DNA from: an uncultured Gammaproteobacteria bacterium
GTDB taxonomy: Bacteria; Patescibacteriota; Microgenomatia; Levybacterales; GWA1-39-11
Direction of reading: 5' to 3'
Assembly: GCA_964537315.1 (NCBI GenBank)
Contig: CAZIAP010000001.1
Location: 121,149-185,148, forward strand
DNA length: 64,000 bases
Shown here: in pieces, positions 19,877 to 20,104 of the stretch
How positions within the stretch are numbered: the stretch's first letter is position 1
Layout of the letters: each line of letters opens with the position of its first letter
Position numbers and translations under genes: made by a program
The notes under the pieces: generated by a model
What the model saw: the letters and a program-made list of their open reading frames with translations, nothing else
The model's database searches: none
What the model was told of the DNA's origin: nothing

Positions 19877-19948
19877 GCGGGCTTAGTTCAGTGGTAGAAT
19901 GCAACTTTTCCAAAGTTGAGGTCAGGGGTTCGAAACCCCTAGCCCGCT
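19877..19948 (+). tRNA. tRNA-Gly (anticodon TCC); no encoded CCA
   Basis: gcgggct acceptor; D-arm agttcagtggtagaat; anticodon arm caact-ttTCCaa-agttg; T-arm agggg-ttcgaaa-cccct. Confidence 0.8.
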
Positions 19949-20104
19949 CAGAGTGTCACATTGTTAAATTGTGACAGTGTGAGTGGTATATAGGTTTTGC
20001 AACATTGTTCGCGCCGCTACGAAGTAGCTAGTACCCTTGGGGTGAAACCCCTAGCCCGCTCATCACTCTGGCGAGATTAATCTCTGCCCACATGAAACTA
20101 CACC

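Follow-up and report, generated by a model that had tools for sequence, protein, structure and literature searches.

A repeated tRNA end beside a gene cluster of odd composition is usually read as the boundary of an acquired island, and the locus described here raises the question of whether that reading holds. Within a 64,000-nt stretch of contig CAZIAP010000001.1 (the window hereafter, meaning that whole stretch), an intact tRNA-Gly(UCC) gene is followed closely by an exact second copy of its 3′ end, and a cluster of cell-surface glycan genes begins just beyond. A preliminary description proposed that the two copies may be the attL/attR scar of an integration event, or may mark the edge of an acquired island. 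Our analysis suggests that this is wrong in detail. Tentatively, with a probability of roughly 0.45, we favour the view that part of the tRNA-Gly 3′ end underwent a short duplication whose product is now conserved and probably works at the RNA level, as a trailer element at the proximal edge of a slot of variable gene content.

The tRNA-Gly gene lies on the + strand at 19877–19948 according to Rfam (68.4 bits) and at 19877–19949 according to ARAGORN. A 19-mer at its end, GAAACCCCTAGCCCGCTCA, occurs exactly twice in the window, at 19932–19950 (D1) and at 20044–20062 (D2), both on the + strand (0 expected from 100 shuffles), and no third copy was found in the 64 kb with up to 3 mismatches allowed. 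Since the gene ends at 19948, the 19-mer consists of the final 17 nt of tRNA-Gly followed by CA. The preliminary description was thus right about the duplicate, at both positions, and about its composition, which agrees with the Rfam and ARAGORN gene ends. Upstream of the 19-mer, 5 more nt are similar across a 2-nt gap, as read from the sequence (tRNA, GGGGTTCGAAACC; copy, GGGGT--GAAACC), so that the second copy spans the T-arm and the 3′ strand of the acceptor stem. The spacer between the copies, designated E, measures 93 nt (19951–20043) rather than the 95 nt or so first given, and holds no open reading frame (ORF). It does contain the 7-bp inverted repeat described there (19954–19976), whereas the 12-bp palindrome gagattaatctc placed in the same interval in fact lies downstream of the second copy, at 20073–20084.

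The arrangement is not an assembly artefact, because an independent Logan assembly (contig L001) is identical to the window over 19847–20146 and because the duplicate is present in another species, represented by contig L006. Breaks in the Logan contigs were considered as population polymorphism and dismissed: L001 breaks inside a 42-nt repeat, longer than the k of 31, and L002 begins at the first 31-mer past a 33-nt block in common with the species of L006, which co-occurs with the window organism in the same samples. Tandem Repeats Finder called no tandem repeat in the window or in L006, as neither locus reaches two copies. As a tRNA gene or pseudogene the D2 segment was rejected, with Rfam (E-value ≤ 10, 19400–20300) returning the two real tRNAs alone and ARAGORN no tRNA at 19951–20062. 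Nor do we claim that E originated as a decayed copy of tRNA-Gly, to which it bears merely loose likenesses (AGTGGTA, TGCAAC) with no tRNA model match.

The spacer and its counterpart in a sister species

Conservation was assessed against L006, which among the relatives whose tRNA-Gly region was retrieved is the closest at species level and whose malic enzyme is 90% identical to that of the window in amino acids and 78% in nucleotides (L019 is closer, at 93%, and its contig stops short of tRNA-Gly). The two tRNA-Gly genes are identical (72/72), and the order of tRNA-Gly, spacer and 19-mer copy is the same, with a period of 112 nt in the window and 120 nt in L006. As a neutral background, third codon positions of malic enzyme are 50% identical between the two, and other intergenic DNA is 38–60% identical and nowhere matches over more than 13 nt in a row.

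Against this background, constant and variable parts alternate within E, all of them given here on the + strand. Directly after tRNA-Gly stands hairpin 1 (tgtcaca-N9-tgtgaca, 19954–19976), in whose position L006 has a 7-bp hairpin of other sequence (TCATACC-GCCA-GGTATGA). It is followed by GAGTGG-TATAT (19981–19991), which reads GAGCGG-TATAT in L006 (10/11 identical) and whose GAGYGG is complementary to the CCGCTC of either 19-mer copy (inverted repeat I1). Conserved block 1, AACATTGTTCGCGCCG (20001–20016; 16/16 identical), has no counterpart in the tRNA. Hairpin 2 (GCTAC-GAA-GTAGC, 20016–20028) is wholly different between the species, 13 nt in the window and 20 nt in L006 (CCCGATG-TTC-ATCGGG), and conserved block 2a, AGTACCCTTGGGGT (20030–20043), is again invariant (14/14). 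Joined to the 19-mer, block 2a makes a run of 33/33 identical positions, and the similarity of window and L006 does not extend past the last base of D2. The repeat itself is longer in L006, where the 19-mer, hairpin 1 and GAGAGCGGTATATGA recur nearly identically over about 65 nt, as about 1.5 tandem units, and repeat identity continues for about 48 nt past the tRNA-Gly end.

E is conserved above the neutral level, with perfect 16-nt and 33-nt runs against a background of about 50%. Gene conversion cannot maintain block 1 or 14 nt of the 33-nt block, since these have no tRNA donor; the unrelated hairpin 2 between conserved blocks rules out a recent recombination tract; and a small ORF conserved across E is incompatible with blocks whose separation differs by 7 nt in length. 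Perfect blocks that alternate with changed but still-forming hairpins argue for purifying selection, and the comparison indicates that E is a structured element under such selection, not a decaying scar.

From the two sequences, RNAalifold predicts a closing helix GAGYGG:CCGCUC, hairpin 2 and a T-arm-like hairpin (GGGGU-GAA-ACCCC) in which the GGGG of block 2a pairs with the CCCC of the second copy, and the minimum-energy folds of both species have these three parts in common. The closing helix shows a single U-G to C-G change between the species, and hairpins 1 and 2 differ in sequence yet keep perfect stems of 5–8 bp in both, a comparison of two species whose stems cannot be aligned column by column. 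Fold z-scores are moderate, at −2.9 and −1.6 when the element is folded by itself and at −3.2 and −3.55 when its flanks are included. GAGYGG can pair equally well with the 3′ strand of tRNA-Gly itself, and when the whole transcript is folded, the predicted optimum in both species joins the tRNA-Gly 3′ strand to GAGYGG and the 5′ strand to the distal copy. If the cloverleaf is imposed, the penalty is 4.9 and 5.9 kcal/mol without the second copy and 6.2 and 9.4 kcal/mol with it, gaps that lie within prediction error and model neither co-transcriptional folding nor tRNA tertiary structure. Neither a sigma-70-like promoter nor a terminator was called inside 19877–20104, which would be compatible with read-through from the tRNA-Gly promoter.

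The history that we favour would begin in the ancestor shared by the window organism and L006, with a single short duplication of part of tRNA-Gly, covering its T-arm and acceptor 3′ strand. The resulting trailer, of about 110–120 nt, would comprise hairpin 1, GAGYGG-TATAT, block 1, hairpin 2, block 2 and the copied tRNA end. Most likely it acts as RNA, co-transcribed 3′ of pre-tRNA-Gly; GAGYGG and the CCGCUC of a 19-mer copy would close a fold of several hairpins whose last part mimics the T-arm and acceptor end, and this structure may act as a signal for processing or for stability where tRNA-Gly meets the downstream cargo. Purifying selection would retain it within a compact unit of leader, segment B hairpin, leader, tRNA-Gly, E and D2. 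The glycan cluster would have entered its hypervariable slot separately and left no repeats, homologous replacement between conserved flanks being the likely route. The duplication itself, its distribution among the relatives, the conserved blocks, the retained hairpins and the complementarity are all observed; we infer transcription through E, an RNA-level function, the mechanism of duplication and the origin, be it a short duplication or the remnant of an element. In favour of duplication over attP identity, the L006 repeat (D, hairpin 1 and GAGAGCGGTATATGA) extends beyond the tRNA end, and in favour of this history as a whole, the tRNA-Gly unit stays intact in the window and L006 while both flanks vary.

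Several points weigh against this history. The extent of the copy, from the T-stem to the 3′ end plus 2 nt, exactly resembles a T-loop-type attP fragment, and only two species carry the element. In L006 the element alone has the weak z-score of −1.6. Covariation support is minimal, because the element is known in two species only, and consists of the one wobble change in the closing helix, the hairpins being impossible to align column-wise. A role for the second copy as a decoy that protects the cloverleaf from the trailer is not supported, the alternative fold winning by 4.9–9.4 kcal/mol with or without that copy. E also lacks family support, since no Rfam family matches it or segment B (19400–20300, E-value ≤ 10) and a covariance model built from the two sequences (R1) found no further copy in about 475 kb of relatives and viral loci. 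A bolder proposal, that E and D2 form an undescribed functional RNA module on tRNA-Gly in this Microgenomates lineage, in which the distal copy may be an alternative acceptor and T-arm strand, is a long shot in our estimation. If true, the module would be either a switch for the maturation of tRNA-Gly or an 'expanded' tRNA-Gly-like RNA whose role lies outside translation.

Origin of the duplicate and competing explanations

Judged by its malic enzyme, Fur and PIG-L proteins, the window organism belongs with the Microgenomates (Levybacteria, Gottesmanbacteria and Roizmanbacteria neighbours) within the Patescibacteria, and its relatives conserve the order tRNA-Gly, slot, malic enzyme, tRNA-Arg(UCU), rhomboid. 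Look-ups with the three proteins yielded many relatives, among which L006 alone carries the element. The duplicate is absent, and tRNA-Gly single, in L065, L010/L012, L013, L014–L018, L008, L007/L021, L022 and L024, and no tRNA-Gly fragment lies within −3 to +9 kb of tRNA-Gly in relatives other than L006. Five of the single-copy relatives (L007, L008, L021, L022 and L024) have an identical tRNA-Gly 3′ end. A metagenome scan gave 0 matches to the D2 junction and five loci for the 19-mer, each single-copy; as a 19-mer locus, L020 was discarded as a chance match in a 65% GC genome with no tRNA at the site. On these sequences the duplicate is best taken as a derived, insertion-type feature with a single origin in the ancestor that the window organism shares with L006. 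Since L006 has it without the glycan cluster, the duplicate is the older of the two features and independent of the other.

At this one syntenic position tRNA-Gly(UCC) comes in two sequence types, one in the window, L006, L007, L008 and L024 and the other in L010, L065, L013 and L014. The window/L006 gene is identical to those of the distant L007, L008 and L024 at 70/72 positions and matches at 51–53/72 those of L010 and L065 (malic enzyme 85–86%) and of L013 and L014 (78–79%), a distribution at a fixed locus that suggests replacement of the tRNA gene. The metagenome-assembled genome of L006 (CAYVAJ010000003.1, also L028) is titled 'uncultured Gammaproteobacteria', a label that is probably wrong, its genes and synteny matching Patescibacteria/Microgenomates relatives (malic enzyme 90%, Fur 79%).

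Islander recognises islands integrated at tRNA genes by a tRNA gene and a fragment displaced from its end, both correctly configured and oriented, with an integrase gene and 2–200 kb between the two (PMC4383910), and the T-stem/T-loop is described there as the commonest crossover sublocation (PMC4383910). At our locus tRNA-Gly is intact, and the fragment comes from its 3′ end rather than its interior, lies downstream in the same + orientation and falls in the T-arm sublocation. There is no integrase gene in or overlapping the interval, and the copies are 93 nt apart instead of 2–200 kb. None of the 50 ORFs of the 64 kb scanned with Pfam (a set leaving out those for a P-type ATPase and UvrA) has a Phage_integrase, Resolvase, Recombinase or transposase domain, and no recombinase was found in the L006 cargo. 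Exact-match scans of IMG/VR, of limited sensitivity, gave no attP match to the 17-mer or the junction block; the 16-mer matches there are due to chance, with flanks about 25% identical, and in phage records D matches phage tRNA-Gly genes alone. With this spacing, no integrase, no third copy, a cluster outside the pair and a conserved spacer, the 19-mers are not supported as an attL/attR pair as had been stated, and an old integration or excision site would not be expected to keep the blocks of E far above the neutral level. The comparison of empty and occupied sites that the preliminary description had called for did reveal presence/absence polymorphism among the relatives, a pattern that local duplication predicts as well. 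The same description had expected a simple local duplication to show neither a third copy nor an integrase, nor any such polymorphism; the first two are indeed lacking, and the polymorphism does exist.

A remnant of site-specific integration nevertheless has to be weighed, and we consider it unlikely. It would take a tyrosine-integrase element whose attP held a tRNA-Gly fragment, integrated in the window–L006 ancestor and later deprived of its interior, with tRNA-Gly as attL, about 93–101 nt of element ends and the second copy as attR; the attP would be expected to contain AGTACCCTTGGGGT-GAAACCCC, also written ...CCCTTGGGGT-GAAACCCCTAGCCCGCT. Such an origin would account for a direct downstream copy of the 3′ end that starts in the T-stem/T-loop, for the half-palindrome GGGGT/ACCCC that precedes it in the manner of a core-type site, and for the empty sites in relatives with an identical tRNA end, and mobile elements do use the tRNA cluster of this clade, as in L025, where a Resolvase-domain ORF and a Zn_ribbon_recom-like ORF abut tRNA-Pro. 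It would, however, have to dispense with an integrase in both the window and the L006 cargo, tolerate 93 nt where the Islander minimum is 2 kb (PMC4383910), and invoke an unlikely deletion that spared about 50 nt at each end, normal excision leaving a single copy. The 48-nt extension of the L006 repeat is left unexplained, as are blocks in E that are 100% conserved where neutral sites stand at about 50%, and neither IMG/VR nor phage records hold an attP-like match to D or to the E blocks.

Somewhat less credible is a neutral local duplication by slippage or unequal crossing-over, whose copies would be kept identical by gene conversion and would have no function. The near-identical 65-nt repeat of L006, which looks like 1.5 tandem units, fits it, as do the equally perfect 42-nt leader repeat, suggesting homogenisation here, and similar partial tRNA-end copies near other tRNAs in relatives. 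Conversion would, however, cover only the 19–24 nt for which the tRNA is a donor and not the donor-less blocks of 16 and 14 nt, 19 nt is short for efficient conversion, and both variable hairpins retain perfect stems. The least probable proposal is a landing pad at the DNA level, in which the second copy and its conserved flank would be a working recombination site (a secondary attB or mobilisable island end) for cargo exchange. That cargo starts at or just after the second copy in both species, that window–L006 similarity ends at the 19-mer 3′ end, and that the slot is hypervariable all speak for it; against it, cargo is equally variable in lineages that lack the second copy, no lineage has a distal partner site (≤ 3 mismatches), and neither the window nor the L006 cargo has a recombinase.

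Partial copies of tRNA ends are also found elsewhere in the group. Exact 20–21 nt copies of the 5′ ends of tRNA-Arg(UCU) (L014–L018) and tRNA-Pro (L022) lie in the leaders of these genes, 60–100 nt upstream (L014, about 11262–11341; L022, reverse strand, about 140–260), with no recombinases. The L014 spacer has a stretch partly complementary to the copied tRNA-Arg 5′ end, mirroring the 3′ case of tRNA-Gly. As these copies come without recombinases, they suggest that small local duplications around tRNA genes recur in the group.

The slot, its cargo and the upstream leader

The slot into which the trailer faces is bounded on the right by the NADP-malic enzyme gene (27595–28791, +), whose promoter region, from about 27535, aligns with relatives. 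Between tRNA-Gly and this gene L008 has 35 nt, L013 45 nt and L065 73 nt; L010, L012 and L019 have one GIY-YIG ORF, L014–L018 one 231-aa ORF, and L007 and L021 about 2 kb of other genes. In L006 the slot holds E-D2 and a pair of small ORFs, of which one carries a prepilin-type N-terminal methylation motif, and in the window it holds E-D2 and seven glycan genes, so that the gene count by lineage is 0, 1, 2 or 7.

The seven-gene cluster (20105–27413) extends for 7.3 kb beyond the second copy, both 19-mers lying on its tRNA side, and its far border has no D-like copy and no short match either. The composition check proposed earlier bore fruit: GC is 0.342 against 0.365 ± 0.009 (0/210 control windows as low), GC at third codon positions (GC3) is lower than in controls (p = 0.01), and the tetranucleotide distance of 0.134 falls outside all 42 control windows (maximum 0.120). 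PIG-L, the first cluster gene, has a nearest homologue at 60% identity, compared with malic enzyme relatives at 93, 90 and 86%. Slot content that varies by lineage, deviant composition and a distant PIG-L mark the cluster, which is absent from relatives, as lineage-specific cargo. The notion of an island edge was therefore partly sound: acquired or replaceable cargo does start just after the second copy, but the repeats do not delimit it. Of its gene labels, six agree with Pfam. The seventh, 'GT39' for 21478–22866, does not, a PMT_2 match being below threshold (E-value 0.019; 15.6 bits against a cutoff of 26.1), and remains plausible. The palindrome gagattaatctc belongs to the cargo side, within the 42-nt PIG-L leader (20063–20104), where it sits in the hairpin GGCGAGATTAATCTCTGCC; it may be an operator of the cargo or a structure of its 5′ untranslated region.

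Upstream of tRNA-Gly lies a perfect 42-nt direct repeat, larger than the 19-mer, that had been missed. tRNA-Pro(UGG) (19584–19657, +; ARAGORN and Rfam) is followed by its first copy, R42a (19694–19735, +; repeat search), a promoter-proximal leader with the hairpin GGAGAAAAAAC-GTTA-GTTTTGTCTCC (ΔG −12.3 kcal/mol, z −3.7). Then come the 99-nt segment B (19736–19834, +) and the second copy, R42b (19835–19876, +), which ends exactly at tRNA-Gly +1. Segment B forms a long hairpin at 19747–19822 (ΔG −23.1 kcal/mol, z −3.5), whose basal stem (CGCG..GCCGTAG / ATGCGG..GCG) is kept in L006 with a variable apex, and its 3′ end contains the −10-like box of the tRNA-Gly promoter, GATACAAT (19820–19827, +). 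Because R42b starts 7 nt past this box, the 42-mer makes up the promoter-proximal leader of pre-tRNA-Gly. Between tRNA-Pro and segment B stand an additional promoter-like box and the identical leader. tRNA-Gly, tRNA-Lys (51253–51326) and tRNA-Arg(UCU) (28964–29037) have a common upstream layout, with a GCGATACAAT-type −10 box, a hairpin leader, 7–8 nt and then the tRNA. In L006 the unit of leader, B, leader, tRNA-Gly, E and D2 is intact, 8.8 kb from tRNA-Pro and with other genes on both sides.

The leader hairpin has a consensus around AAAACGTTAGTT, with related copies near 51342–51384 (−) and 28925–28963, and its stems vary compensatorily between genes and species. Near-identical copies are found near Fur, in L029 (93% identical, with no tRNA directly after) and in L031–L033 (identical over 29–35 nt). 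Segment B occupies the position, behind promoter and leader, where a tRNA would be expected (L006 equivalent, about 4290–4375, −), and may be an undescribed small RNA or processing element.

Candidate mobile genes adjoin other tRNA genes of the group. An HNH_3 endonuclease ORF (30531–31007, 158 aa, E-value 2e-10) overlaps 32 nt of the 5′ end of tRNA-His (30976–31053) and looks like a homing-endonuclease-type gene on a tRNA gene. Small GIY-YIG ORFs (88–111 aa) lie beside tRNA-Pro/tRNA-Gly in the window (19250–19516), L010 (777–1112) and L025 (4037–4309); the gene of L010 recurs in L009, L011, L012 and L019, and in L010 and L019 it fills the slot between tRNA-Gly and malic enzyme. In L025, from a close relative (2379–3931), a Resolvase-domain ORF (211 aa) precedes a 288-aa ORF with a Zn_ribbon_recom match below the Pfam cutoff (E-value 0.00028), which ends 10 nt inside the 3′ end of tRNA-Pro (3921–3994, −). 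The pair looks like a split large serine recombinase; no repeat of a tRNA-Pro fragment was found in that contig.

Comparison with known systems

With islands integrated at tRNA genes, as catalogued by Islander, the locus has in common a downstream, same-strand 3′ fragment from the T-arm, an intact tRNA and adjoining variable cargo. It differs from them in that the cargo lies outside the pair, there is neither a distal fragment nor an integrase, the spacer is constrained and the L006 repeat reaches beyond the tRNA. For annotation, the lesson is that tRNA fragments at short range, where the copies are less than 2 kb apart and no integrase is present, are unfit for delimiting islands.

Free-standing homing endonuclease genes occur in tRNA clusters, an example being that of SegB, a GIY-YIG enzyme of phage T4. 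A likeness to them is seen in the window and its relatives, where small GIY-YIG and HNH ORFs directly adjoin tRNA genes, and by analogy double-strand break repair at homing-type sites could produce partial duplications, but no nuclease gene lies between or adjoins the 19-mer copies.

Flexible genomic islands of the replacement type carry cell-surface glycan genes between conserved flanking genes. The lower-GC cluster of the window resembles them in its fixed slot, its tRNA-Gly and malic enzyme anchors, content that differs in relatives, and the lack of integrase and repeats. The likeness concerns this neighbouring cluster and not the 19-mer pair, and exchange is the probable rather than the observed process. 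The interval from tRNA-Gly to the malic enzyme gene is a cargo hotspot, filled with surface-glycan genes in one lineage.

For the trailer itself, the closest parallels are tRNA-like processing signals in longer transcripts, among them the t-elements of plant mitochondria, the mascRNA-type 3′ end of MALAT1 and the 3′ external transcribed spacers of bacterial tRNA operons. The analogy, which offers a plausible model for the action of the trailer, would lie in a T-arm/acceptor mimic set beside other genes, where the element is kept and the neighbours change. Unlike these signals, E has a shifted acceptor-like helix (GAGYGG:CCGCUC, not GCGGGCU:AGCCCGC), a T-like hairpin with a loop of 3–5 nt and no tRNA model match. 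The locus suggests a compact, decorated tRNA-Gly unit among candidate-phyla-radiation bacteria, composed of a leader hairpin, the B hairpin and a trailer mimicking the end of the tRNA. If functional, this trailer would be a new kind of cis element, made from the tRNA's own end.

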